64,000 nt of DNA from Syntrophales bacterium. Lineage in GTDB: Bacteria; Desulfobacterota; Syntrophia; Syntrophales; PHBD01. The DNA lies in assembly GCA_963668175.1 (NCBI GenBank), contig OY764159.1:4160001-4224000 (forward strand), read 5' to 3'. Numbering within the stretch: position 1 is the first letter of the stretch; each line of letters opens with the position of its first letter. Of this stretch, positions 1 through 14,134 are shown piece by piece. The translations under genes and the position numbers were made by a program. The notes beneath the pieces were generated by a model. The model was not told the DNA's origin. It saw nothing but the letters and a program-made list of their open reading frames with translations, and searched no databases.

Positions 1-777
1 ATCCCCATTACCCCGGAAGAGATCGCTCAATCGGCCGTTGAAGCCTGGCGGGCAGGGGCCTCCATCGTCCACATCCACGTCCGGGACCCGGAAACGGGCC
101 TCGGGACGCAGGACCTCAACCGATTCAGACAGGTCGTGGATATCCTGCGCAAAAAGACCGACCTCATCCTGAGCCTGACGACCAGCGGCATTCCGGGCCG
201 CAATCTGCCGGTCGCCGAACGTCTGGCACCGCTCAAACTGAAGCCGGAATTGGCATCCTTCGACGCCGGATCAATCAACCTGGGCGGCGGGGTCTTCGTC
301 AACGACCCGGCCTTTCTCGACGAGGCCGCCCGGATGATGAAAGAGGCCGGCGTCAAACCCGAGATCGAAATCTTCGACCTGGGGATGGTCGTCACAACCC
401 TCAGGATGCGGGACGAGGGAAAGCTGTCCGATCCGCTCCATTTTCAGTTTGTCCTGGGTACCCCCTGGGGGGCTCCGGCCACGCCCAAAGCGTTTCTCCA
501 CCTTCTGGAACATATTCCCGACGACGCCACGTGGTCGAATATCGGAATCGGGCGGGGGTATCTGCCGATGGCCATGATGGCCCTTATCATGGGGGGACAT
601 ATCCGCGTCGGCATGGAGGACAACATCTACCTCGACAAGGGCGTCCTGGCCAAAAGCAACGCCGAACTGGTGGAACGCGTCATACGGATCGTCCGCGCCT
701 ACGGACGCGACGTCGCCTCTCCCGAAGAAGCCCGGCTTATTCTCGGCATTCGCACGAAAACAAAGGAAAACGTATGA
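1..777 (+). CDS. 3-keto-5-aminohexanoate cleavage enzyme (BKACE/DUF849) family protein, 5'-truncated by the window edge
   Basis: Frame is open from base 1: IPITPEEIA...GASIVHIHVRD, ASFDAGSIN, KPEIEIFD, GGHIRVGMEDNIY are BKACE motifs. Confidence 0.9.
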   Translation: MPITPEEIAQSAVEAWRAGASIVHIHVRDPETGLGTQDLNRFRQVVDILRKKTDLILSLTTSGIPGRNLPVAERLAPLKLKPELASFDAGSINLGGGVFVNDPAFLDEAARMMKEAGVKPEIEIFDLGMVVTTLRMRDEGKLSDPLHFQFVLGTPWGAPATPKAFLHLLEHIPDDATWSNIGIGRGYLPMAMMALIMGGHIRVGMEDNIYLDKGVLAKSNAELVERVIRIVRAYGRDVASPEEARLILGIRTKTKENV

Positions 778-1847
778 ATATGAAACCGAAGTTCCTGGCC
801 ACGGGAGTCGGCAGCATGCCTTTTGACGATCCCGGCCATGGAATCGACCTGTTAATGGAGGCGCTGCCCGACGCCCCCTTCTGGCCTCAACTGCCGAAAA
901 AGGGGCTTCACGAGCAGATGGAAATCCAGTTCTGCGAGGGGATGCCCAGGGCAGTCATTGACGAGGGGAAGAACCGGCTTTATTTCGATACGTCGGGAGA
1001 CTATTCGGAGGAACTTGCCGATTTCTACGGGACCTACATGGCGGCGATGGACCCCGACGAAGGCAACGGCGACTGTTCAGCCCTGGCCATCGGCCCGTCC
1101 TTTTCCTCGGGTATTTATGCACTGGATGAGCGCCTCCGGCAGATGAACAGGAAACTGCCGTTTCTCAAGGTCCAGGTCACGGGACCTTGCACATTCTCTC
1201 TGACCGTCAACGACGAGAATAGGCGAGCCGTCTATTACAACGATGCATTCCGGGATGTGGTCCTCAAGGCCCTGGCCATGAAATGCCGGTGGCAAATCCA
1301 GAAATTCAAGCCTTACGCGGATCATGTCATTTGCTTCATCGACGAGCCGATTCTTTCCGCCTTCGGAAGTTCCACCTATGTTTCCGTCAAGAGGGAAGAC
1401 GTCGTCGCCCTTCTCGCCGAAATGATCGGCGCCGTCCACGCCGACGGCGGTATCGCCGGCATCCACTGCTGCGGCAACACGGAGTGGAGCATTCTCATCG
1501 ATGCCGGCGTCGACATCGTGAATTTCGATGCCTTCCAGTATGGCGAAACCGTCGCCATGTACCCGGCCCACATCAAGAATCATCTTGAACGCGGGGGCAT
1601 GCTGGCCTGGGGTGTTGTGCCGACCTCCGCAGCGATCGGCGAGCAGACGTTAGAAGGGCTTGCGGAACGTCTCGAAGGCGTGATGGCGCACCTCGCGACC
1701 AAGGGAACCGAAAAGAGATTGATCGCCGAACAGGCCTTGATTACGCCTTCTTGCGGGACGGGTTCCATGTCGCCGGCAGACGCGGAACGGGTCTTCCGCC
1801 TGACGGGGGAACTCTCCCGGGAAATGAAACGCCGGTACGGATTCTGA
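774..1847 (+). CDS. Core (folate-independent) methionine synthase, MetE C-terminal-domain-only, MesB-like
   Basis: ATG at 774 overlaps the upstream TGA (ATGA); ATGVGSMP, TGP, FIDEP, Zn-ligand GIHCCG and TPSCG motifs; about 357 aa, lacking the MetE N-terminal half. Confidence 0.8.
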   Translation: MNMKPKFLATGVGSMPFDDPGHGIDLLMEALPDAPFWPQLPKKGLHEQMEIQFCEGMPRAVIDEGKNRLYFDTSGDYSEELADFYGTYMAAMDPDEGNGDCSALAIGPSFSSGIYALDERLRQMNRKLPFLKVQVTGPCTFSLTVNDENRRAVYYNDAFRDVVLKALAMKCRWQIQKFKPYADHVICFIDEPILSAFGSSTYVSVKREDVVALLAEMIGAVHADGGIAGIHCCGNTEWSILIDAGVDIVNFDAFQYGETVAMYPAHIKNHLERGGMLAWGVVPTSAAIGEQTLEGLAERLEGVMAHLATKGTEKRLIAEQALITPSCGTGSMSPADAERVFRLTGELSREMKRRYGF

Positions 1848-2020
1848 TCACCGGCCATACCCCCGACCTGTGACGATTCAAAGGCGGGACAGAGGCAAGA
1901 TATCCCGGCTTCCGGCAGATTATTTCTCCCGGAATGGATGAAGACCGGAAAAGGCCGCCGACCGCAAAAACGGAAGGCTTGATGAAGGAACCGAACTAAA
2001 ACAGGAAAAGACTTTTCACC

Positions 2021-2788
2021 ATGAGTTACATCATCGCCATAACGGGCAAAGGAGGCGTCGGGAAAACGACGGTTTCCGCCGTTATGATCTCCCGCATGAT
2101 CGCCCGCGGCTGCCGCCCCATCCTGGCCATCGATGCCGATCCCAATACCAATCTCGACGCCGCCCTCGGCATAGAGATAGCAAAAACCATCGGCGGAATT
2201 CGCGAGGAAGCCAAGCATTACGCCAACATGGGAATGGCGTCGGGTATCGACAAGAAGAGACTCCTGGACATGAAGATCGCCGAAAGTCTCGTCGAAAGCC
2301 GCGATTTCGATATGCTGGCCATGGGCCGGTCCGAAGGGGCGGGGTGTTACTGTTATGCCAACAACATCCTCAAAGACGCCATCCAGCAGCTGGCAGCCCA
2401 GTATCCCTACGTCATCCTCGATAATGAGGCCGGGCTCGAGAATCTTTCGCGCCGCATAATCCAGTCTGTCGATCTCATGATGATGGTCACGGACCCTTCG
2501 GTCAGGGGTATGGATACGGTCAGGCGTCTTCACGGCCTGACGGCAGAGATGGGAATCGTTTATAAGAATCTGGCCGTGGTTATCAACCGATTAAGACGGG
2601 ATGAGCTTCCGGGTCACGCCGATGCCCTGATCCGCGACATTAACGCCGGATTTGTCCTTGCTCTGCCGGACGACGACGATATCGGCCGTCGCTCCGAGGA
2701 AGGGATCAGTCTTGCCGATTTGGCGGCTGACAATCCCATCGTATCGAGAATCGACCACCTCCTCGACCGCTTAAGTCTGTCCGGTTAG
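2021..2788 (+). CDS. cooC: CO dehydrogenase/acetyl-CoA synthase Ni-insertion ATPase (CooC/AcsF)
   Basis: GKGGVGKTT, IDADPNTNL, GCYC and DNEAGLENLSR motifs. Confidence 0.93.
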   Translation: MSYIIAITGKGGVGKTTVSAVMISRMIARGCRPILAIDADPNTNLDAALGIEIAKTIGGIREEAKHYANMGMASGIDKKRLLDMKIAESLVESRDFDMLAMGRSEGAGCYCYANNILKDAIQQLAAQYPYVILDNEAGLENLSRRIIQSVDLMMMVTDPSVRGMDTVRRLHGLTAEMGIVYKNLAVVINRLRRDELPGHADALIRDINAGFVLALPDDDDIGRRSEEGISLADLAADNPIVSRIDHLLDRLSLSG

Positions 2789-2800
2789 AAAACAGCAGAA

Positions 2801-3457
2801 CTACTGCCGGGGATATCCGATCGTCTGGGCAAGGATGATCCGCTGGTCGTCCCTTAACATCATGGCTTTTCCCAAGACCACCCTGTCGATATTGCCCCTC
2901 ACGACCGTCGCCAATCCTTCGGAAGCACAGTAGAGATAGACGTTCTGGCTGACAAAACCCGTATCCGTGGCGGAGTAGAAATCCTTTTCCTCGGGAGTCG
3001 CTTTTCCCATTCTGGCCAGATCGGCCACATAAATCAGATTGACGGGGGCTTCCTTGACGTAAGGCTGGCTTCCGGTAACACCCCTGATATCCTGTTTGAG
3101 CAACATCTTCAGGCTATGGGTGGCGGCATCGTAAAGGTAAAGGCCGTCTGCGGTTGCGACATAGATATCGATCTCCTGCCAGTTGTTCGCCGAAGGTGCC
3201 GTTCTCCCGTTCGTCTGCGGACGGTTCACGCCGCAAGCAGCCCAAAGGATATTCGACAAAACGCGGATGGGCAGCTTTTTAGGGCTGAAATTCCGAGACG
3301 TTTTCCTGTCTTTCAACACCTGCATCAACATGCGGCTGCTGTCCATCTGGGGCTTGAGGAGTTTAATCGTCTTCAAATCCTGGGCTAAAGCAACTGCAGG
3401 GAAGAGCAGGAGAATAACCGCGACAAATTTTGCCGTTAGGCAACATCTGATAAACAT
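2801..3457 (-). CDS. Nitroreductase / SagB-ThcOx-family oxidoreductase with signal peptide
   Basis: RKTSRNF, RTAPSANNWQ, DTGFVSQNVYLYCASEGL motifs; AGGAGG upstream of the ATG at 3457; AxA signal peptide. Confidence 0.85.
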   Translation of the reverse strand: MFIRCCLTAKFVAVILLLFPAVALAQDLKTIKLLKPQMDSSRMLMQVLKDRKTSRNFSPKKLPIRVLSNILWAACGVNRPQTNGRTAPSANNWQEIDIYVATADGLYLYDAATHSLKMLLKQDIRGVTGSQPYVKEAPVNLIYVADLARMGKATPEEKDFYSATDTGFVSQNVYLYCASEGLATVVRGNIDRVVLGKAMMLRDDQRIILAQTIGYPRQ

Positions 3458-3763
3458 TTTGCGTCCCCCTCCTGTTTCATCAAAATTCATACGGACACGC
3501 ATCTGACCGATACACTTTAACAGTTTAAAAATCAAGCATATTTCAGTACCGCCAACGACCCCGGCGGCCGCATCGCTCTGTAACCGTACGCCGCGCGACA
3601 CCGAAAACTTGGCCATGGTAAGATTAAACCGCCGCCGGACCCAAGCAAGCCGGGTGCCTTTCGGGTATGAACCGGGCACACACAAGGACTCGCCGCGAAC
3701 GGCTGTTTAAATATCTTGACGGCATGACCGGTATCATATATCAGAACACCTAATCGTTTGTAA

Positions 3764-3857
3764 CCGCTGCCTTAAAGGTTCTCTGAGATGGGAACTCCCG
3801 GGCGGCGGGCGGCGGCGACGCCTGATCGTGCGCCCGCCGGTATTTTCCATTTTTATT
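3764..3857 (+). promoter_or_regulatory. Candidate attenuator (alternative stems plus U-rich tail) in the cooS leader
   Basis: CCGCTGCC (3764-3771) can pair with GGCGGCGG (3801-3808); CGGCGGGCG (3803-3811) can instead pair with CGCCCGCCG (3831-3839), which is followed by TATTTTCCATTTTT. Confidence 0.35.
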
Positions 3858-4005
3858 CAGAGATTGTATAATTTCATGATGGCATCCCTCGTTTTCGGCC
3901 TGAAGCCCCACGGCCGTCCGGCCTTCCCGGGGATTAACATAGAGATCGGTCCCGTGTGCAGACCGTTGCGTCGCAGGAAGAGAGCGGACCGATGAACATT
4001 TTCCG

Positions 4006-5964
4006 ATGAAAGACATGAACCCAAGAAAAATGGACCCTAAAGAACGGCTCTGGGACCCGGCATCCATAGAAACCCTGGTCAAAGCCGAACGGGAAGGCCT
4101 GGAAACCTGTTTTTCCCGGATGGATAATCAGGGGAGCACCTGCACATTTGGAAAGAACGGCCTCTGTTGCCGCATCTGCTACATGGGGCCGTGCCGGATT
4201 ACGAAAAAGGCCCCCCGCGGCGTTTGCGGGGCCGATGCCGATACGATTGTCGCCAGGAACCTCCTGCGGGAAGTGGCCGGAGGTACAGCCGCCCATTCCG
4301 ATCACGGCCGCCATCTGGTATTGCTTCTGAAGAAGACCGCCGAAGGAAGGTCCGGGGATTACACGATAAAAGACGAAAAGGCTCTCCGTCAGGCGGCAAG
4401 ATGGTACGGAATTGCCGAAGAAGGCCGCAGTAAAGAGACCGTCGCCCTGGAACTGGCGAGTATCTTTCTTCAGGAATTCATGAAGCAGGAAGAATCGCCC
4501 GCGACCGTGAGCCTTGCTCCGGCAAAACAGCAGACGATCTGGCAGAACCACGGCCTTACACCCGCCGGTCTCGATCGGACCGTCGTGGAATCGATCCACC
4601 GTACCCACATGGGCGTCGACCATGAATACCGTAATCTGCTCCTCCAGGCATTCCGTACGGCCCTGGCCGACGGGTGGGGAGGCTCCCGGATAGCGACCAT
4701 CTGCTCCGACATTCTGTTCGGTACACCCTCTCCTGTCCGCAGCGACGCCAACCTGGGGGTCCTCAACACAGAAACCGTCAATATCGTCGTCCACGGGCAT
4801 GAACCGGAGCTGTCGGAATTGCTGGCCATCGCATCCAGGGACCCCGAAATGACCGCCTATGCCCGCATTGCAGGTGCCGAAGGCATCACCCTCGCTGGAA
4901 TCTGCTGCACGGCCAATGAAATCCTCATGAGGCACGGCATTCCCGTGGCGGGAAGTTTTCTCCAGCAGGAATTGGCCATCGTCACCGGCGCGGTGGAAAT
5001 GATGCTCATCGACGTCCAGTGCTGTATGCCCAGCTTGCCCGAGATCGCAGCGGCCTACCATACGGAGATCGTCTCCACGACGGAAATGGCCAAGACGGCA
5101 GGAGCCTCCTTCATTACGCTCGACGAACACGAACCATTGAAATCCGCGAAGATGCTCATCAAGAGGGCCATCGACCGCTATAAGCTCCGCGACCCGAACA
5201 AGGTCGCCATTCCGGCGGTTAAAAAGCCCCTGGTAGCCGGATTCAGCGTCGATGCCATCAAATACATGCTGGGAGGCAGCTTCCGGGCATCCTTCCGTCC
5301 CCTGAACGACGCCGTCATCCAGGGACGCATAAGAGGTATCGCCGCAATCGTCGGCTGCAACAACCCCCGGTCGAGGGTGGATGAGTACATCAATATCCTC
5401 ACCCGTCAACTGATCGGCCGGGACATCCTCGTCCTCAAGACCGGCTGCGCGGCCATCGCTTCCGCCAAGGAAGGGATGCTCACTCCGGAAGCGGCGCTGG
5501 AGGCGGCGGGAAGCGGGCTGAAAGAGGTCTGCGAGGCGGTGGGCATGCCCCCCGTCCTGCACATGGGAAGCTGCGTCGACAACTCCCGGATTCTGGAAGC
5601 CGCAACGGAGATCGTCCGCGAAGGCGGGCTGGGAGACGATTTGTCCCAGATACCCGCCGTCGGCATCGCCCCCGAATGGATGAGCGAAAAGGCCGTGGCC
5701 ATAGGCTGTTACTTCGTCGCATCGGGGATCGACGTCATCCTGGGACATCCGTTCCATATAGGCGGTTCCGAAAAGGTCACCCGCTTCCTGAACAAGGAGG
5801 CCAGGACCCTGTTCGGGGCCTCCTTCCACGTCTGCGAAGAACCGGAAAAAGCAGCAGATGCGGTCGTCAAGATCATCGATAATGCAAGGGAACGTTTGGG
5901 CATTCATCGACAGGCCTCCCGGAAGCTCTTCGACATGGAAGACCGGAGGATGCTCGATGTCTAA
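4006..5964 (+). CDS. cooS: Anaerobic Ni-CO dehydrogenase catalytic subunit
   Basis: CCRICYMGPC, HSDH, HGH, GICCT, DVQC, GCNN, KTGC, GSCVD and SEKA cluster ligands. Confidence 0.97.
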   Translation: MKDMNPRKMDPKERLWDPASIETLVKAEREGLETCFSRMDNQGSTCTFGKNGLCCRICYMGPCRITKKAPRGVCGADADTIVARNLLREVAGGTAAHSDHGRHLVLLLKKTAEGRSGDYTIKDEKALRQAARWYGIAEEGRSKETVALELASIFLQEFMKQEESPATVSLAPAKQQTIWQNHGLTPAGLDRTVVESIHRTHMGVDHEYRNLLLQAFRTALADGWGGSRIATICSDILFGTPSPVRSDANLGVLNTETVNIVVHGHEPELSELLAIASRDPEMTAYARIAGAEGITLAGICCTANEILMRHGIPVAGSFLQQELAIVTGAVEMMLIDVQCCMPSLPEIAAAYHTEIVSTTEMAKTAGASFITLDEHEPLKSAKMLIKRAIDRYKLRDPNKVAIPAVKKPLVAGFSVDAIKYMLGGSFRASFRPLNDAVIQGRIRGIAAIVGCNNPRSRVDEYINILTRQLIGRDILVLKTGCAAIASAKEGMLTPEAALEAAGSGLKEVCEAVGMPPVLHMGSCVDNSRILEAATEIVREGGLGDDLSQIPAVGIAPEWMSEKAVAIGCYFVASGIDVILGHPFHIGGSEKVTRFLNKEARTLFGASFHVCEEPEKAADAVVKIIDNARERLGIHRQASRKLFDMEDRRMLDV

Positions 5965-8900
5965 GATCATCTGTTCAAGCGCCATCGACGGCGGCATCGC
6001 CTGGATCGCCCGCGCGGAAGAATTCCTGGATCGGGCCGTCCGGCAAAAAGGAGAAGGGGCCGTCGTCGCCTTTCCGGACAGCGCCTACTTCCTTCCCGTC
6101 ATTTATTCCTTCACCGGCGAAAAGGTACGTACCTTAAGCGATCTGCGCAGGCTCCTGCGCTATGCAAAGACCCTGCTTCCTCCCCGGCCCACGGATCGCG
6201 TCTGGCTGCCGTACCTGGGAAACGCCCTCGATGCGGGCGTCGCCTCCCTCTTTGCCTGCGAAATCATCGAGGCCTGCAAGTACCTCATCGGCCCCAACCC
6301 GATAGACGGCATATGGCTGGGTGCGGCGAGCGATGTCATTATGCGCGAACGGGGCATTGAATTCGTCGACGGTACGGCACCCGGCTTTGCCGCCATTACC
6401 GGCGCCGCCCCCACGAACGAAATCGCCGTTTCGATAGCCCGTGCGCTCCAGGAGAAGAACCTTTATGTGTTCATGGCGGGCCCGTCGGGGGGGCGCCAGT
6501 TCGCCGAACAACTCGCGGAGGAAGGCGTTCAACTCGGCTGGGAAACGCGCCTTGTGCCTTTCGGCCGCGACGTCTCCGCCCTGATCTACGCCCTCGGCTT
6601 CGCGAACCGGGTGGCCCTTTCCTTCGGAGGAGTGCAGGCAGGAGATTTCGAACGCAATTTGAAGTACAACAAAAACCGCATATTCGCTTTTGTTCTGGCC
6701 TTCGGTGAAGTAACGCCGGACAAATACGCCCTGGCCGCCGGCGCCATCAACTACGGATTCCCGGTCATCGCCGATACGGACATCCCCCAAATCCTCCCCA
6801 CGGGCGTCTGCACATACGAGCACGTGGTTTCAAACGTCCCCTACGAAAGCATGGTGGAGAAGGCCCTTGAAGTCCGGGGATGTAAGATCAAGATCACCAA
6901 GGTGCCTATCCCTGTTCCCTACGGCTCCGCCTTCGAGGGCGAACGCATCCGCAAGAGCGACGTCCACGCCGAATTCGGCGGCGGCATGACGACGGCCTTC
7001 GAATTCGTCACCATGGCGGACATGGACGAGATTGCAGACAACACCATCGACATCATCGGTCCCGACATCGACGCCGTCGAGCCGGGAACCGTGCTGCCCC
7101 TCTGCATCTGGGTGGAAGTGGCCGGACGCAAAATGCAGTCCGATTTCGAACCGATCCTGGAGCGCCAGATCCACCACCTCGTCAACGGTGCAGAAGGGAT
7201 ATGGCATATGGGGCAGCGGGACATCGTCTGGACGCGTATCTCCAGGAGCGGATACGCCAAGGGCCTGCGCCTGAGACATTACGGAAACATCATTTACGCG
7301 AAATTCGTCTCGGATTATCCGGCCATCGTCGACAAGGTGAAGATCACCCTGATCACCGACGCAGCAGAGGTCGAAAGAAGAGTGACCCACGCCCGCAGGG
7401 TTTACGACGAACGCAACCGCCGCCTGGAATCGATGACGGACGAATCGGTGGACACTTTTTACTCGTGTCTGCTCTGCCAGTCCTTCGCCCCCAACCACGT
7501 CTGCATGATCACCCCGGAGCGCCTGGGGCTTTGCGGAGCCTACAACTGGCTCGACGGAAAGGCCGCCTACGAGATCAACGAAACGGGCGCCAATCAACCG
7601 GTCGCCAAAGGGACCTGCATCGATCCCGTCAAGGGCATCTGGGAAGGGGTCAACGATTATGTGCGTATGGCCAGCCACAAGGCGATCTCTTGCTATTCGG
7701 CCTATTCGATCATGGACAGGCCGATGACGAGCTGCGGCTGCTTCGAGGCCATCTGCGCCTACCTCCCCGAATGCAACGGCGTCATGGTCGTGAGCCGGGA
7801 ATTCAGCGGCGACACCCCGATCGGCATGACCTTCTCCACGCTGGCGGGCAGCGTCGGCGGGGGCCATCAGACGCCCGGATTCATCGGCGTCGGCAAGGTG
7901 TTTCTCACGTCGAGAAAATTCCTCTACGCCGAAGGCGGACACCGGCGGCTCGTCTGGATGCCGAAGGCCCTCAAGGAAGCCCTGGCCTACGATCTCAAAA
8001 AACGGTTTGAAGAACAGGGATGTCCCGATCTCTGGGACAAGATCGCCGATGAAACAGTGGCCATCGACGCCCATCAGGTAAGGGCGTTCATGGACCGGGT
8101 CCAACATCCTGCCCTGGCCATGGCCGATATGCAGTCTCTTGCGGAAGAATCTCCCCGTGCTGCAACGGCGGCGCCGACGATCGCCGACACCGTCCCGGCA
8201 CCCGACAAGAAGGCGGGAGAAGTCGGCGCCGGCTCTGTGAAGCCTGACGACATCGTCCGGATGAAAGAAGAAATAACTGCCGACATCCTGAGCAAGCTGA
8301 AGTCCTCCCTCGCGGGCGAGATCATGGCGGGCGTAATGGCGGCGCTGGGTTCGAAGCCCCGGGATGAAAGCGAGAAAATAGCCCCAGCCGCTCCTGCATC
8401 GGATGTACCTTCACGGGAACATTTTTATGTATCGGCGGTGAATCGTATCGACGCCGTGACGGCATTTCCGGTACGCCGCGAGACATACGGAACGGCGATT
8501 CAGGAGGTCACGCTCGGTGCCGCTCCGGAATCCGGCGGTACCAGGGCAAAGACGGTCACGGTGGGAGGCTCGACATGCATGCCCTTCCACTTCTGGGAAG
8601 GCCGAATGCCGCATCGCCCGGTCATCGCGATGGAGGTCTTCGACAGGATCAGCGAAAAATACCCTCCTGTTCTCAGGGAATGTTACGGCGGTCTCCTCAA
8701 CGATCCTCCGGCCATGGCGCGGGCCTGCGTGGAGAAATACGGTGCCGATCTCATCAGCGTCCGCCTCGACGGCACACACCCCGACCGCGGCAATTATTCA
8801 CCCGAAAAGGCCGTGGAACTGGTGAAAGCGGTTCTCGGCGCCGTGGATGTGCCGCTCATCGTCACCGGACACAGCCACTACGACCGCAACAACGAAGTCA

Positions 8901-9433
8901 TGAAGGCCGTCGCCCAGACCTGTGCCGGAGAGGGTCTTCTCCTCAACTGGCTGGAGCAGGACAACTACCGGACCATAGCGGGGGCGGCTATCGCCTACGG
9001 ACATGCCGTCGTCGCCCAGAGCCCCATCGACGTGAATATCGGCAAGCAGTTGAACATCCTCCTCACGGGCATGGATATGCAGCCCGGCCGGATCGTCATG
9101 GACCCGATGACCGGCGCCGTCGGATACGGCATCGAATACACGTATTCCGTCATGGAAAGGATCAGGCTCACGGCTCTCGGCGGCGACCCGATGCTCGCCT
9201 GCCCGCTGATCGTCTCTCCCGGGCAGGAATGTGCCAAGATCAAGGAATCGAGGGCGTCGGAAGCCGATTTCCCGGCCTGGGGGAATCTGGCCAAACGCGC
9301 GGCGGTTTGGGAATTGGCGACGGCGCTGGGCCTTCTCTACGCAGGTGCCGATATCCTGATCATGTATAACCCTGAAGCGGCCGGAGCTCTGAAGCGGACG
9401 ATCATGCGGTTGATGGAAGGCGGCGGCCAATAA
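5957..9433 (+). CDS. acsB-acsD: Acetyl-CoA synthase (AcsB) fused to the corrinoid Fe-S protein small subunit (AcsD)
   Basis: GGAGG then ATG at 5957; A-cluster motifs CLLCQSFAPNHVC, GLCGA, TSCGCFE; Ala/Pro-rich linker; then AcsD-like IQEVTLG...SPIDVNIGKQLN...MDP...GYGIEYTYSVMERIR...GADILIM, all in one uninterrupted frame. Confidence 0.93.
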   Translation: MSKIICSSAIDGGIAWIARAEEFLDRAVRQKGEGAVVAFPDSAYFLPVIYSFTGEKVRTLSDLRRLLRYAKTLLPPRPTDRVWLPYLGNALDAGVASLFACEIIEACKYLIGPNPIDGIWLGAASDVIMRERGIEFVDGTAPGFAAITGAAPTNEIAVSIARALQEKNLYVFMAGPSGGRQFAEQLAEEGVQLGWETRLVPFGRDVSALIYALGFANRVALSFGGVQAGDFERNLKYNKNRIFAFVLAFGEVTPDKYALAAGAINYGFPVIADTDIPQILPTGVCTYEHVVSNVPYESMVEKALEVRGCKIKITKVPIPVPYGSAFEGERIRKSDVHAEFGGGMTTAFEFVTMADMDEIADNTIDIIGPDIDAVEPGTVLPLCIWVEVAGRKMQSDFEPILERQIHHLVNGAEGIWHMGQRDIVWTRISRSGYAKGLRLRHYGNIIYAKFVSDYPAIVDKVKITLITDAAEVERRVTHARRVYDERNRRLESMTDESVDTFYSCLLCQSFAPNHVCMITPERLGLCGAYNWLDGKAAYEINETGANQPVAKGTCIDPVKGIWEGVNDYVRMASHKAISCYSAYSIMDRPMTSCGCFEAICAYLPECNGVMVVSREFSGDTPIGMTFSTLAGSVGGGHQTPGFIGVGKVFLTSRKFLYAEGGHRRLVWMPKALKEALAYDLKKRFEEQGCPDLWDKIADETVAIDAHQVRAFMDRVQHPALAMADMQSLAEESPRAATAAPTIADTVPAPDKKAGEVGAGSVKPDDIVRMKEEITADILSKLKSSLAGEIMAGVMAALGSKPRDESEKIAPAAPASDVPSREHFYVSAVNRIDAVTAFPVRRETYGTAIQEVTLGAAPESGGTRAKTVTVGGSTCMPFHFWEGRMPHRPVIAMEVFDRISEKYPPVLRECYGGLLNDPPAMARACVEKYGADLISVRLDGTHPDRGNYSPEKAVELVKAVLGAVDVPLIVTGHSHYDRNNEVMKAVAQTCAGEGLLLNWLEQDNYRTIAGAAIAYGHAVVAQSPIDVNIGKQLNILLTGMDMQPGRIVMDPMTGAVGYGIEYTYSVMERIRLTALGGDPMLACPLIVSPGQECAKIKESRASEADFPAWGNLAKRAAVWELATALGLLYAGADILIMYNPEAAGALKRTIMRLMEGGGQ

Positions 9434-9506
9434 CGGATCAGATCTATATTCCGGGACCTTGCTTTAGCAGAAAGGTACTGTATACGATGACAGCAGGACG
9501 TTTTTA

Positions 9507-10853
9507 ATGGCATTGACAGGACTTCAGATACAGAAACTTCTTCCCAAGACCAACTGCCGGGAGTGCGGCTCCAATACGTGCATGGCGTTCGCCATGAGGC
9601 TTGCCGCCAGGAAGGCCGACCTCTCCCTCTGTCCGTATGCATCCGACGAGGCGAAGGCCATTCTGGGCGCCGCGGCCGAGCCGCCGGTGCGGGAGATCGG
9701 CTTGGGCGTCGACGGCGCCCTGCGGACAGGCGGCGAAACGGTCCTGTACCGGCATGAAAAAACCTTCGTCCACCGGACCATCTTCGCCGTCAATATCGAC
9801 GACACGACAAACGATGAACAGATTGACGCCACGCTGAAAGCCTTGAAGGGATACGCCCTCGATAGAGTGGGCGAAACCTTCAAGCTTGATATGATTTCCC
9901 TGACCCAAGCAGCGAAGGATGCCCCGGCCTTCATCGAACTCGCCCGCCGCGCCGCCGCCGTGACGGAACTGCCGCTCGTGATCCGCAGCAAGGACCCGCA
10001 TCTCCTTGCCGAAGTCTCGGCGGCGTTAAAGGGAACTACCTGCGTCCTCTCCGCTGCAACGCCTGACACCGCCGCCATACTCGGGACGTCGGCCAAGGAA
10101 AACGGCCATGTCCTTGCCGTCACGGCTTCCGATATCAATGCGATGACGGCCTGTGTAAAGAACCTCAGGGATACGGGCCATACCGATCTGCTTCTCCAGT
10201 TTCAATCCTCCAACGTGGCCGAACAGTTCCAGACCAACACGGTCGTGCGAAGGGCAGCCCTCATGGACGGTGTCAAACCGATGGGCTATCCCTTCCTTCG
10301 CTTCATCGACCCTGCCGGAGATACCCTCGATATCGCCGCCGAAACGGCAACGGAAATCCTGAAATACGGAGGCATTTGCGTTCTGCCATCCTTCGATCCG
10401 GCCATAATCGCCGCCTTCATGACATTGAGGCTCAATATCTTCACCGATCCTCAGAAACCGATCCAGGTGGAGCCCAAGATATACGCCATCGGCGAGCCGG
10501 ATACCGAATCGCCCGTCTTCGTAACGACCAACTTCGCCCTCACCTATTTCATCGTCTCCGGCGAACTTGAGAACTGCGGCATCGGAAGCTGGCTTGCCGT
10601 CCCGGACTGCGACGGCATGAGCGTTCTTACGGCCTGGGCGGCAGGAAAATTTTCCGGCGCAACCGTGGCCAAGTTCATCAAGGAATCGGGACTGGAAGAC
10701 AGCGTTAAAACCAGGACCGTCACCATACCGGGCTATGTGTCGGTCATCAGCGGAGAGATCGAAGAAAACCTCCCGGGCTGGAAGGTCCTCATCGGCCCGC
10801 CGGATGCATCCGACCTGGACGGCTATGTCAAAGTGATGCTCGGTAAACCCTAA
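9507..10853 (+). CDS. acsC: Corrinoid Fe-S protein large subunit (gamma)
   Basis: LPKTNCRECGSNTCMAFA...CP 4Fe-4S domain, GGETVLYRHEK, NIFTDPQKP, TTNFALTYF, SVLTAWAAGKF. Confidence 0.96.
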   Translation: MALTGLQIQKLLPKTNCRECGSNTCMAFAMRLAARKADLSLCPYASDEAKAILGAAAEPPVREIGLGVDGALRTGGETVLYRHEKTFVHRTIFAVNIDDTTNDEQIDATLKALKGYALDRVGETFKLDMISLTQAAKDAPAFIELARRAAAVTELPLVIRSKDPHLLAEVSAALKGTTCVLSAATPDTAAILGTSAKENGHVLAVTASDINAMTACVKNLRDTGHTDLLLQFQSSNVAEQFQTNTVVRRAALMDGVKPMGYPFLRFIDPAGDTLDIAAETATEILKYGGICVLPSFDPAIIAAFMTLRLNIFTDPQKPIQVEPKIYAIGEPDTESPVFVTTNFALTYFIVSGELENCGIGSWLAVPDCDGMSVLTAWAAGKFSGATVAKFIKESGLEDSVKTRTVTIPGYVSVISGEIEENLPGWKVLIGPPDASDLDGYVKVMLGKP

Positions 10854-10868
10854 CCCGGACTTTACAGC

Positions 10869-12764
10869 ATGCCGCGGATAACCTTTCATCCTCTTGGAGC
10901 GACCGTCGAGGCGCCATCCGGCCTGGAATTGCGCGATGCCGCAAAACGGGCGGGCATCGAGTTGGACTTTCCCTGCGGCGGCCAGGGGACATGCGGCCGG
11001 TGCGCTGCGCGCGTCCTATCCGGCCGTCTAGACGTCATAGAGACAGCCATCTCGGCCGACACCGTTCCTGATGAAGGATCTATCCTCGCCTGCCGGGCAA
11101 AGATCGGCGATGAAGACGCCGTTGTCGAAGTACGCGAGCAGCCGGATTTGTCAGCCGGTCAGTTCATCGACGAAGAGGAAGAAGCCTCGTTCATACCGCC
11201 TGGATGGCAGGAGCAACCCACCGACCAGGGAGCCCTCGTCTCGACTTATCTCATTGATGTGCCTCCACCGCAGGAGGGAGAAGGCGCCTCGGACTTGGAG
11301 CGTTTGTATACGTCTCTGCGGCGAAATCCGGAGGAGCCTGCCTTCGATTACAGCCTGCATGCGCTGCGCGAGCTGGCGGGCGCCCTTCGCTGCCGAAACG
11401 GGAAGGCGATGGCTGCGGCCGGGCGCTTCGGTGAGCGCCGGCGCCTCGTCCATCTGGAAGCGGGCGGCGACCTCCGTTCTCTTTACGGCATCGCCGTGGA
11501 CCTTGGCACGACCACGGTGGCCGTCAACCTGGTTTCTATTCCCGAAAACCGCATCATCGCGTCACGGACGGAATACAACGGCCAGGTCGTCTGCGGCCTC
11601 GACATCATCAGCCGGATCAATTACGCCGGTCGACCGGAAAGACTGGAAGAACTGCGCCTGAGAGCCCTCAAGACGATCAACGGCTTGATCGGGCAACTAG
11701 CCGCTGCCGTCGCACCGGCCCGGAATCGGATATACGGCTGCGCCCTTTCCGGCAACACGACAATGATCCATCTCTTGCTGGGCATGAATCCCGAGTATAT
11801 CCGTCTTGCCCCCTACACGCCGACCGTTCTGGACGTGCCGCCGCTTCGGGCAGGCGATATCGGCCTCGACATCCACCCGGAAGGCCCCGTCTTCATATCC
11901 CCGGCCGTCGGCAGTTACGTCGGCGGCGATATCACCGCCGGTCTTCTCTGCACAGGCTCCGCCTTCACGAGCGACGAGATATGCCTTTTTATGGATATCG
12001 GCACCAACGGCGAAATCGTCTTGGGAAACGGCGATTTCCTCATGGCCTGCGCCTGTTCCGCAGGGCCGGCATTCGAAGGCGGCGGCATCGGAAACGGCAT
12101 GAGGGCCGCCGGCGGGGCCATCGACCGGGTGCAGATCGATCGGGAAACGGGGCAGGCGACTTATCGCACCATCGGTGATTTGCCCCCGCGCGGCATCTGC
12201 GGCTCCGGAATGCTGTCACTCCTGGCCGGCCTTTTCACGGGAGGATGGCTCGATGCGTCCGGTCGTTTCAAACGGCCGAGTTCTTCATCTTTTATCGACT
12301 TCAAAGGCAGACTGGGGATTTATACCGTTGTTCCCTGGGAGAAGAACGCGATCACCGTGACGGAGCGGGACATCGAAAATCTCATCCGCGCCAAGGCGGC
12401 GCTATATGCGGCCTGCGGCCTGCTCACGAAACAGGCGGGGATCGGATTTCAGAACATAGCAAAGGTATTCATCGCCGGCGGATTCGGGAGGTACCTGGAC
12501 ATTGAAGACGCCGTTACGATAGGATTGTTGCCGGATATCCCCCGGGACCGCTTCCATTACCTGGGGAATGCGTCGCTTAAGGGCAGCACGATGATCCTGC
12601 TTTCGGAAGAACACCGGAGGCTGCAACAGGGGTTCGTGAAACGCATGACCTATGTGGAACTCAACACGGACTCCGAATACATGGATCAATACACGGGGGC
12701 TCTTTTTCTGCCCCACACGGACCGCCGCCAGTTCCCTTCGCTGAAAAACCGGCTGGCGGATTGA
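10869..12764 (+). CDS. acsV: Corrinoid reductive activator, ASKHA ATPase with 2Fe-2S domain (AcsV/RACo)
   Basis: CGGQGTCGRC...LAC ferredoxin domain, DLGTTT, DIGTNGE, SAGPAFEG, GICGSG. Confidence 0.92.
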   Translation: MPRITFHPLGATVEAPSGLELRDAAKRAGIELDFPCGGQGTCGRCAARVLSGRLDVIETAISADTVPDEGSILACRAKIGDEDAVVEVREQPDLSAGQFIDEEEEASFIPPGWQEQPTDQGALVSTYLIDVPPPQEGEGASDLERLYTSLRRNPEEPAFDYSLHALRELAGALRCRNGKAMAAAGRFGERRRLVHLEAGGDLRSLYGIAVDLGTTTVAVNLVSIPENRIIASRTEYNGQVVCGLDIISRINYAGRPERLEELRLRALKTINGLIGQLAAAVAPARNRIYGCALSGNTTMIHLLLGMNPEYIRLAPYTPTVLDVPPLRAGDIGLDIHPEGPVFISPAVGSYVGGDITAGLLCTGSAFTSDEICLFMDIGTNGEIVLGNGDFLMACACSAGPAFEGGGIGNGMRAAGGAIDRVQIDRETGQATYRTIGDLPPRGICGSGMLSLLAGLFTGGWLDASGRFKRPSSSSFIDFKGRLGIYTVVPWEKNAITVTERDIENLIRAKAALYAACGLLTKQAGIGFQNIAKVFIAGGFGRYLDIEDAVTIGLLPDIPRDRFHYLGNASLKGSTMILLSEEHRRLQQGFVKRMTYVELNTDSEYMDQYTGALFLPHTDRRQFPSLKNRLAD

Positions 12765-12769
12765 CGGCC

Positions 12770-14134
12770 TCAATGCTTCAGGCCGTATTTCTTCAGCTTG
12801 TAGCGAAGCATCCTTTCGCTGATGCCGAGAAGTTCCGCGGCCTTGGTCTGGTGGTATCCCGTCTTTTCCATGGCCTCGACGATCAGCCGCTTCTCCAGGT
12901 CTTCGATGGACTCCTTGAGCATCCCTTCTTCCTTTCTGCCCGATTCTCCGTGATCGAACGCATCTTCGCCGAAAGGCAGATCCTCGATGGAAATTACCGA
13001 CTCACGGGCAATCACGACGGCCCGTTCGATGATGTTTTCCAATTCGCGGACATTGCCCGGATAATCGTATTTCAACAGGAGATCCTGGGCCTCGCGGCTG
13101 AAACCTGCTATGTCCTTGCCGTTGTCCGCCGCATAGCGTTTGATGAAATGATCGATAAGCACCGGGATGTCCTCTTTCCTCTCCCGCAGCGGCGGCATGG
13201 CCATAACGACCACATTCAGCCGGTAGAAGAGGTCTTCGCGGAAATCGCCGGCCTTGACCCTCGCTTCCAGATCGCGATTGGTGGCGCTGATGATGCGCAC
13301 GTCGGAGCGGATGGTTTGGTTGCCGCCCACCCGCTGAAACTCACGTTCCTGCAAAAAGCGAAGGAGTTTGACCTGGACCGATTGCGATAATTCGCCGATT
13401 TCGTCGAGGAAAAGGGTCCCGCCGTCGGCCTCTTCAAAACGGCCGATGCGCCGTGCCGTGGCCCCGGTAAAGGACCCTTTCTCATGACCGAAGAGTTCGC
13501 TCTCCAGAAGATTTTCATGCAAGGCGCTGCAGTTGACGGAGATGATGGGCCGCTGCGACCGCGGGCTCAAATGATGGATGAGCTTCGCCATCAGTTCCTT
13601 GCCCGTACCGCTTTCCCCCTGGATGAGTATCGTCGCCCGGCTGGCGGCGACACGTCCGGCCATGTTGATCAGGGCGCTCATTTTCGGACTCCGGAAAATG
13701 ATCTGATCGGTCGTCACTCCTTTTTCCCTGAGTTCCTGTCGAAGCAGTTCATTCTCCCTGATCAGGGTGCGCCGCTCAGATACGCGATCCACCAACAATA
13801 GCAGTTCGTCGAATTCGATGGGCTTGGTAATATAGTCTATGGCTCCTGATTTCATGGCTTCGACAGCCGTCTCGATCGTTCCGAAAGCTGTAATGATCAC
13901 GACGTCGATCTCGGCATTGATCCCCTTGACCGCCTTGAGGACATCCATACCGCTCAGGCCCGGCATCTTGTAGTCGAGCAGGATCAAATCGTAATGGCCG
14001 CTCCGGACCAGTTGCACGCCCTTTTCGCCGTTTTCAGCCTCGGAAACCGAGTGGCCCTCCTTGATAAGGAAATCTCTTAACATTTCCCGCTGGGACTGCC
14101 CGTCTTCCACAATCAGGATGTTCAATTTTTTCAT
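12770..14134 (-). CDS. Sigma54-dependent response regulator (NtrC/ZraR family)
   Basis: Receiver domain, GESGTGKE, GSFTGA, FREDLFYRL, C-terminal Fis HTH. Confidence 0.95.
   Translation of the reverse strand: MKKLNILIVEDGQSQREMLRDFLIKEGHSVSEAENGEKGVQLVRSGHYDLILLDYKMPGLSGMDVLKAVKGINAEIDVVIITAFGTIETAVEAMKSGAIDYITKPIEFDELLLLVDRVSERRTLIRENELLRQELREKGVTTDQIIFRSPKMSALINMAGRVAASRATILIQGESGTGKELMAKLIHHLSPRSQRPIISVNCSALHENLLESELFGHEKGSFTGATARRIGRFEEADGGTLFLDEIGELSQSVQVKLLRFLQEREFQRVGGNQTIRSDVRIISATNRDLEARVKAGDFREDLFYRLNVVVMAMPPLRERKEDIPVLIDHFIKRYAADNGKDIAGFSREAQDLLLKYDYPGNVRELENIIERAVVIARESVISIEDLPFGEDAFDHGESGRKEEGMLKESIEDLEKRLIVEAMEKTGYHQTKAAELLGISERMLRYKLKKYGLKH

Follow-up and report, generated by a model that had tools for sequence, protein, structure and literature searches.

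A MesB-like methyltransferase gene clustered with genes for CO dehydrogenase/acetyl-CoA synthase in a Syntrophales genome: a candidate folate-independent link between acetyl-CoA and methionine

In the canonical acs operon of acetogens (as in Moorella), acsA-acsB-acsC-acsD-acsE are found together with cooC/acsF and acsV. The gene cluster studied here, at positions 774-12764 of a 64,000-nucleotide stretch of DNA (hereafter the window; 4.160-4.224 Mb, G000:C1:4160001-4224000), belongs to a Syntrophales bacterium whose genome is complete as a single contig of 4,567,304 bases (GenBank assembly GCA_963668175.1, contig OY764159.1). Like the acetogen operon, it encodes CooS/AcsA, AcsB, AcsC, AcsD, CooC and AcsV-type proteins. 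It differs in that AcsD is fused to AcsB, in that AcsE is missing from the cluster and from the genome, and in that a predicted thiol methyltransferase stands where the folate methyltransferase would be. Of the components of a complete acetogen-type Wood-Ljungdahl pathway, Fhs, FolD and MetF were found in the genome, and AcsE was not.

The thiol methyltransferase resembles MesB, the core methionine synthase (core-MetE, cbdbA481) of Dehalococcoides mccartyi. In Price 2021 (PMC7857596), MesB is predicted to take its methyl group from CoFeSP, the corrinoid/iron-sulfur protein, is restricted to genomes encoding AcsC/AcsD, and is encoded in mesB-acsCD operons in methanogens. According to Deobald 2020 (PMC7005905), D. 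mccartyi has neither MetF nor carbon monoxide dehydrogenase (CODH), and its mesB sits among genes of the S-adenosylmethionine (SAM) cycle. The idea that a methyl group passes from acetyl-CoA through CoFeSP to methionine is already in print in these two papers, and Williams 2022 (PMC9324843) applies the Dehalococcoides idea to MAGs (metagenome-assembled genomes). Our literature search found no printed description of a conserved bacterial mesB-cooC-cooS-acsBD-acsC-acsV unit.

With D. mccartyi MesB, the Syntrophales protein shares a single MetE-type barrel of ~340-360 aa lacking a folate domain and a His-x-Cys...Asp...Cys zinc site of equal spacing; both genomes encode AcsB/C/D but no AcsE, with CoFeSP as the proposed methyl donor. 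The Syntrophales bacterium differs from D. mccartyi in having CooS in the cluster, MetH and MetF in the genome, and the methyltransferase gene beside the acs genes, and the histidine of the HxxG motif of the Dehalococcoidia is a glutamine (Q134) in the window protein. The cluster also resembles the methanogen mesB-acsC-acsD operons, as described in Price 2021 (PMC7857596), in joining a MesB gene to both CoFeSP subunit genes in one apparent operon; AcsC and AcsD, to which MesB is tied at the genome level, are here in the same cluster. Unlike those operons, it is bacterial, carries CooC, CooS, an AcsB-AcsD fusion and the reductive activator of corrinoid protein (RACo), and is spread over many bacterial phyla. 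From the MetE catalytic domain and MesD (PDB 1xdj, 3l7r, 3rpd) the protein differs as follows: identity is 12-17%, the N-terminal folate barrel is absent, Asp replaces Glu as a zinc ligand, and neither PF01717 nor HMMER searches of PDB detect the protein.

With confidence a little above even, we interpret the 357-aa protein encoded at 774-1847 as a folate-independent zinc homocysteine methyltransferase of the MesB kind, with the adjacent CoFeSP as its methyl partner. The transfer of the methyl group from CoFeSP to the enzyme, homocysteine as the substrate and the direction of flow are all predictions. AcsB would cleave acetyl-CoA, and the cobalt of CoFeSP (AcsC together with the AcsD portion of the fusion) would take up the methyl group before it is passed on to homocysteine bound at the zinc, yielding methionine. 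The CO would be handed to CooS and oxidised to CO2, while RACo/AcsV would re-reduce oxidised corrinoid and CooC would load nickel. As the route would run alongside MetH and MetF, it would be an alternative methyl supply and not the sole one.

The window proteins were identified by open reading frame (ORF) calling and by Pfam and NCBIfam profile matches with family cut-offs. The genes of the cluster are as follows.

774-1847, plus strand: MesB-like single-barrel zinc methyltransferase (core methionine synthase type, predicted), 357 aa; only a weak match to NCBIfam PRK00957 'methionine synthase' (E 1.4e-5)
2021-2788, plus strand: CooC-type nickel-insertion P-loop ATPase, the paralogue preceding cooS in the module; CbiA/AAA_31 Pfam matches, CbiA/ParA-type
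4006-5964, plus strand: CooS, Ni-CO dehydrogenase catalytic subunit; TIGR01702, 627.7 bits (cut-off 478)
5957-9433, plus strand: AcsB-AcsD fusion, joining acetyl-CoA synthase (including the N-terminal domain that binds CODH) to the small subunit of CoFeSP; NF040764 and NF003376 in a single open frame
9507-10853, plus strand: AcsC, large corrinoid/4Fe-4S subunit of CoFeSP; NF003195, 484.7 bits (cut-off 306), PF04060, PF03599
10869-12764, plus strand: RACo/AcsV-type reductive activator of corrinoid protein; RACo_C_ter, Raco_middle, RACo_linker, Fer2

The carbonyl-branch set of CODH/acetyl-CoA synthase (ACS) is thus complete within the cluster (CooS, AcsB, AcsC, AcsD, a nickel chaperone and a corrinoid activator), and CooS, AcsB and AcsC pass NCBIfam equivalog cut-offs. 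In the fused frame, residues 44-758 match the AcsB profile NF040764 (1026.9 bits, cut-off 800) and residues 870-1186 the AcsD profile NF003376 (373.7 bits, cut-off 280); the AcsD part passes the PRK04452.1-2 subfamily cut-off and remains below that of WLP_AcsD (241 versus 430). RACo/AcsV scored 571.8 bits against NF040756, under the cut-off of 800. A longer acsBD ORF opens at 5858, but the NCBIfam alignment begins only at its residue 34, and the start is most likely the ATG at 5957, which would overlap the cooS stop. The gene order, and the absence from the cluster of acsE, metF and any other folate gene, agree with the first-pass annotation of this DNA, which had described a core MetE-like gene, cooC, cooS, acsB-D, acsC and acsV clustered at 774-12764 and ending at a convergent gene; the latter is a minus-strand gene for a sigma-54 response regulator (12770-14134).

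The kinship of the 357-aa protein with MetE shows only in profile-profile and fold comparison: the protein has no Pfam match and does not reach the gathering score of PF01717 (Meth_synt_2), a profile that was matched weakly by only 3 of 64 family members (best E 5.4e-5). Searches of PDB sequences with phmmer and with the 64-sequence profile retrieved no methionine synthase, only two chance matches to XaxB (E ~1). An AlphaFold model built from the 64 homologues (pLDDT 97.2, pTM 0.94) was compared with known structures using Foldseek, which ranked MetE structures first; residues 1-356 align end to end with the C-terminal barrel of MetE only, e.g. residues 392-733 of Thermotoga maritima MetE. Profile alignment with hhalign against Meth_synt_2 domains, with E. 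coli MetE as the lead sequence, gave 96.7% probability (E 3.3e-10, 205 columns) and paired D190, H231, C233, D252 and C327 with E. coli D599, H641, C643, E665 and C726. Across the 64 homologues, conservation of these five residues, and of S14 in a GSxP motif, is complete or no lower than 90%, although S14 pairs with E. coli S433 only in a weak N-terminal hhalign alignment (probability 31%). Residue E47, guessed from motifs as the counterpart of E. coli Glu484, was dropped as hhalign gives it no support. The MetE-type fold and the zinc site support the core methionine synthase assignment made at first pass.

The zinc ligands follow an HCDC pattern in which Asp (D252) replaces E. coli Glu665, and their spacing (H, +2 C, +19 D, +75 C) equals that published for D. 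mccartyi core-MetE, which has His215, Cys217, Asp236 and Cys312 in 343 aa (Deobald 2020, PMC7005905). In MesB the equivalents of Ser433 and Asp599 are kept and the Glu484 region is variable or not alignable (Price 2021, PMC7857596), and the 357-aa protein fits this pattern, with Glu484 not placed and the S433 alignment weak. Among its homologues, P0203 (39% identity, 245 bits) falls in a 90% cluster named Methanomassiliicoccales, and Methanomassiliicoccales is an order that carries MesB only (Price 2021, PMC7857596), and a 343-aa homologue with H215, C217, D236 and an HxxG motif at 119 scored 244 bits. Because of the Asp ligand and spacing, the Ser433/Asp599/Glu484 pattern and the Methanomassiliicoccales-cluster homologue, the protein is classed as MesB-like, an assignment by residues and relatives; for membership of MesB itself, Price 2021 (PMC7857596) asks for a phmmer score of 130 bits or more against the D. 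mccartyi enzyme that has been characterised.

A new family outside MesB was considered, since PF01717 is silent, and dropped as the ligand spacing matches the published MesB residues. Excluding MesB on a Pfam miss is also invalid because PF01717 was silent in a control genome, that of Methanosarcina acetivorans, whose methionine synthases are assigned to MesC in Price 2021 (PMC7857596). The family is large: a word-indexed search returned more than 4,600 homologues, and the 120 listed are 67-96% identical, have no precomputed Pfam domain and include named organisms from several phyla. An exhaustive search gave 2,168 representatives at E <= 0.001, 454 of them at E <= 1e-30. In two related genomes, homologues lie within longer open frames (670 and 756 aa) that resembled fusions; the 670-aa one, in L125, which was the one inspected, contains a 625-aa ORF without a domain match in its additional part and is probably just an open upstream frame.

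The complete genome was searched for folate and methionine genes. Pterin_bind (PF00809) produced two matches, a 408-aa FolP-like gene beside ftsH and MetH, and no AcsE-like gene was found by this profile search; as the genome is complete, the absence of AcsE is firm. No PF01717 match, and hence no MetE, was detected genome-wide at E <= 0.1, and PF02574 was found solely inside MetH. The methyl-branch search covered Fhs, FolD and MetF, with formate dehydrogenase outside its scope. Copies of pterin-binding, methylenetetrahydrofolate reductase (MTHFR; MetF), formyltetrahydrofolate synthetase (FTHFS; Fhs) and FolD genes lie at 1.13, 1.62, 2.91, 3.73 and 4.49 Mb only, and none is within the window. 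With the family profile of the 357-aa protein, the window copy was the sole match in the genome. AcsC and AcsD of the window are the only full set, the CdhD-type proteins of the genome being AcsC, the AcsD part and an HgcA elsewhere. A second CooC-type ATPase (C1:2537654-2538418, minus strand), far from the acs cluster, is 49% identical to the CooC that comes first in the module of another genome (L009).

The HgcA gene is part of an hgcA-hgcB pair directly behind a gene for an ArsM-like arsenite methyltransferase (G000:C1:2037599-2039968, equivalent to L128:379-2748). HgcA scored 450.8 bits (cut-off 275), HgcB 120.3 (cut-off 99) and the ArsM-like protein 358.8 against PRK11873 (cut-off 263). 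Because of the hgcA-hgcB pair, the Syntrophales organism is likely a mercury methylator, with only one CoFeSP and no AcsE, and this gives its corrinoid methyl metabolism some environmental relevance.

To place the cluster among its relatives, 80 related loci were kept from 202 relatives, many of them ending early at contig ends, and module genes were called by tblastn with the window proteins (at least 50% coverage, E <= 1e-10). Downstream of the methyltransferase homologue, cooC was present in 75 of the 80 loci, cooS in 62, acsBD in 53, acsC in 47 and acsV in 30, in constant order. This linkage to CODH/ACS genes is far beyond chance. By record title, the loci come from Bacteroidales, Victivallales, Lentisphaerae, Clostridia, Ignavibacteriota, Planctomycetota, Acidobacteriota, KSB1, Omnitrophota, Spirochaetales, Synergistaceae and others, L076 being from the cultured Victivallis vadensis. 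Among 60 relatives of the Syntrophales genome, 14 had a match (one of eight within the same family), and this patchy occurrence, together with 64-71% identity across phyla, fits a self-contained unit that spread horizontally.

Most relatives carry more than the window cluster does. In 57 of the 75 loci with a cooC match, the space ahead of cooC is taken up by an ORF of 255-329 aa on the plus strand, and all six such ORFs that were sampled encode a second CooC-type ATPase; the window CooC is 58% identical to the cooS-proximal paralogue of L007, the closest relative. Upstream DNA of 1 kb or more is available for 70 loci, and 42 of these encode a stand-alone PF02574 homocysteine-binding protein (E ~1e-70) directly upstream. 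The window cluster, unlike most relatives, has neither of these. In the Victivallales chromosome L015, two PF02574 genes stand in tandem ahead of the MesB-like gene (L015:7973-8860 and L015:9091-9978). Upstream of the stand-alone homocysteine-binding gene, four loci, L064 among them (L064:311-934), encode a 207-aa B12-binding protein of the MetH type (cap and Rossmann domains), and the two amount to a pterin-less split MetH heading the acs module. A regulator with a GntR-type helix-turn-helix and a periplasmic-binding-protein-like domain precedes the module in six of the 80 loci (L009, L012, L017, L020, L022 and L006).

When all flanking ORFs were clustered, only two other recurrent families appeared, both encoded between cooC and cooS: a CooF-like ferredoxin in four loci and, in eight of the 80, a Pyr_redox_2 flavoprotein. 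This variant, seen at L048:12659-14412 and in seven further loci, comprises a CooF-like 4Fe-4S protein and a Pyr_redox_2/Rubredoxin_C flavoprotein, together with a CooS that is more distant. Among these seven, L014, L025, L037, L049, L059 and L063 have an equally wide gap between cooC and cooS, with a CooS only ~50% identical. The variant suggests coupling of CO oxidation to NAD(P). With redox potentials of about -520 mV for CO2/CO and about -320 mV for NAD(P)H, the CooF-like/Pyr_redox_2 chain can accept electrons from CO and cannot drive CO2 reduction. Thermodynamics and the NAD(P)-type chain of the eight-locus variant thus support the direction toward methionine.

Several observations weigh against a CoFeSP-to-homocysteine route, or against its necessity. 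An intact-looking 805-aa MetH is present, with S-methyl_trans, Pterin_bind and two B12 domains, and MTHFR, FTHFS and FolD each have one strong genome match, scattered and far from the window. Since MetH and MetF are present, the acetyl-CoA route is not needed for methionine in the Syntrophales genome. A survey of 50 host genomes of unknown completeness, in which Pterin_bind matches were sorted by frame length and E-value, gave a similar picture: 29 have a MetH-like frame (587 aa or longer), 42 have MTHFR, and 18 have a small pterin protein other than FolP, a possible AcsE or piece of a split MetH. Three of the 50 have no Pterin_bind match; PF01717 matches occur in nine, with full-length MetE in one only, and 16 have neither a MetH-like frame nor a PF01717 match. 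Most hosts, the Syntrophales genome included, keep the folate route, unlike Dehalococcoides. Scans at Rfam gathering thresholds of the window plus 20 kb upstream and of 23 related loci (16 plus seven from Bacillota/Clostridia) turned up no SAM, cobalamin or T-box element, and the set of 16 loci returned one tRNA as its sole match. The protein itself also goes undetected by PF01717 and by PDB sequence searches, a counterpart of E. coli Glu484 could not be placed by hhalign, and the comparison with MesB is indirect, by residues and relatives. Prediction of a complex between the MesB-like protein and residues 310-447 of AcsC, its corrinoid domain, scored 0.00 in two runs without controls, which is no evidence either way.

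The immediate surroundings of the methyltransferase gene belong with these counterpoints. The neighbouring genes are listed below.

1-777, plus strand: beta-keto acid cleavage enzyme (BKACE), 3' part; PF05853, E 4.9e-93; lineage-specific, outside the conserved module
2801-3685, minus strand: nitroreductase-family flavoprotein (nitroreductase/SagB-like), between cooC and cooS; PF00881, E 1.3e-23
12770-14134, minus strand: sigma-54 response regulator, convergent, bounding the cluster and outside the module; Sigma54_activat, Response_reg, HTH_8

The full BKACE gene starts at L001:19935, 66 nt upstream of the window, and follows a class-III aminotransferase gene (L001:18586-19932) after a gap of 2 nt; the methyltransferase ATG at 774 overlaps the BKACE stop by 4 nt (ATGA), and a 174-nt gap separates the methyltransferase gene from cooC. 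Judging from this layout, the methyltransferase gene is translationally coupled to the unrelated BKACE/aminotransferase pair and not to the acs genes, and the opposite-strand nitroreductase gene separates it and cooC from cooS-acsBD-acsC-acsV. Because of the ATGA overlap, the 174-nt gap and the opposite-strand gene, cooS-acsBD-acsC-acsV probably forms its own transcription unit in the Syntrophales genome. A promoter and terminator scan of the locus gave nothing exceeding shuffled controls. The best match of BKACE is the 3-keto-5-aminohexanoate cleavage enzyme of lysine fermentation (306 bits for the in-window part, below the cut-off of 382), and the pair resembles the kce and beta-aminotransferase pair of that pathway. 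Genes for a rubrerythrin-like protein and CorA lie further upstream of the aminotransferase gene. The aminotransferase-BKACE-MesB-like arrangement is shared, among the 80 related loci, with L007 only, which is also the only locus with the nitroreductase-family gene (60% identical; not seen in the other 79) and has a full acs set behind its methyltransferase gene. At the other end, the sigma-54 regulator and a histidine kinase converge on the cluster; the regulator is not recurrent among related loci.

The shunt from acetyl-CoA through CoFeSP to homocysteine that had been proposed at first pass therefore stands in part. Gene content, the lack of AcsE, the fold and the wide linkage speak for it, while MetH/MetF make it unnecessary and the coupling to BKACE speaks against it. 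The same annotation had asked for acsE, metF, fhs, metH and metE in the genome and had seen acsE with a full methyl branch elsewhere as contrary evidence; acsE and MetE were not found, MetF, Fhs, MetH (and FolD) were, and although these folate enzymes exist, nothing connects them to CoFeSP. A role in methionine supply is tentative, given MetH/MetF, the lack of a methionine-type riboswitch and a second homocysteine methyltransferase in many genomes.

One alternative, which we regard as unlikely, is that the flow is reversed: a methyl group from methionine or another S-methyl amino acid would load CoFeSP, and ACS would join that methyl group to CoA and to CO that CooS generates from CO2, forming acetyl-CoA and providing fermenters with a methyl-driven electron sink and a source of acetyl-CoA. 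The module is widespread in non-acetogenic fermenters, and as MetH-like frames (29 of 50 hosts) and MTHFR (42 of 50) are already there, it would seem superfluous for biosynthesis alone. In 25 sources no riboswitch of the methionine or SAM type turned up, corrinoid systems that demethylate thioethers are known from methanogens, and the second homocysteine-type methyltransferase adjoining the enzyme in 42 of 70 loci would allow one protein to load the corrinoid and the other to unload it. Methyl transfer from methionine to cob(I), however, is strongly uphill, and the methionine synthase reaction is effectively irreversible; the variant with a CooF-like protein and an NAD(P)-type flavoprotein, in 8 of 80 loci, agrees with oxidation of CO and not with reduction of CO2, and the clustering of flanking ORFs showed no methionine transporter or homocysteine-disposal gene recurring near the module.

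It is similarly improbable that the enzyme replaces AcsE but acts on a small thiol other than homocysteine, or with a different methyl donor or acceptor, and so ties CoFeSP to some methylated metabolite not yet recognised. Its escape from PF01717 and every PDB sequence search and the unplaced Glu484 equivalent would fit such a substrate, and the PF02574 protein beside the enzyme in most loci could be the real methionine synthase. Yet the zinc site is intact, and the stand-alone PF02574 gene is absent from the Syntrophales genome and from 28 of 70 loci, in which the MesB-like enzyme is the module's only methyltransferase.

A broader proposal, which we hold to be quite unlikely, makes the MesB-like enzyme a two-way stand-in for AcsE, in a self-contained, horizontally mobile seven-gene unit by which fermenters from many phyla would move methyl groups from acetyl-CoA to the methionine/homocysteine pool and back; in its methionine-consuming direction, S-methyl groups and CO2 would serve as an electron sink and in folate-free, methionine-driven acetyl-CoA synthesis. 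Lastly, the ATGA overlap, the gap before cooC and the opposite-strand gene before cooS could mean that in the Syntrophales genome the methyltransferase serves the upstream aminotransferase/BKACE pair and that its place beside the acs genes is a relic, but this is very improbable, as that pair accompanies the homologue in one of 80 loci versus 75 for cooC, L007 keeps the full acs set downstream, and no obvious chemistry joins a BKACE to a thiol methyltransferase.

If the reading of the 357-aa protein as a MesB-type homocysteine methyltransferase served by CoFeSP is true, CODH/ACS genes in many non-acetogenic anaerobes are not evidence of carbon fixation or acetogenesis and would mark instead a folate-independent link between acetyl-CoA and methionine. 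To the loci that carry this module, the window adds a complete genome with a minimal form of it, consisting of one methyltransferase and one CooC. As MetH and MetF are retained in the Syntrophales genome, the purpose of the route is open to genetic test there.

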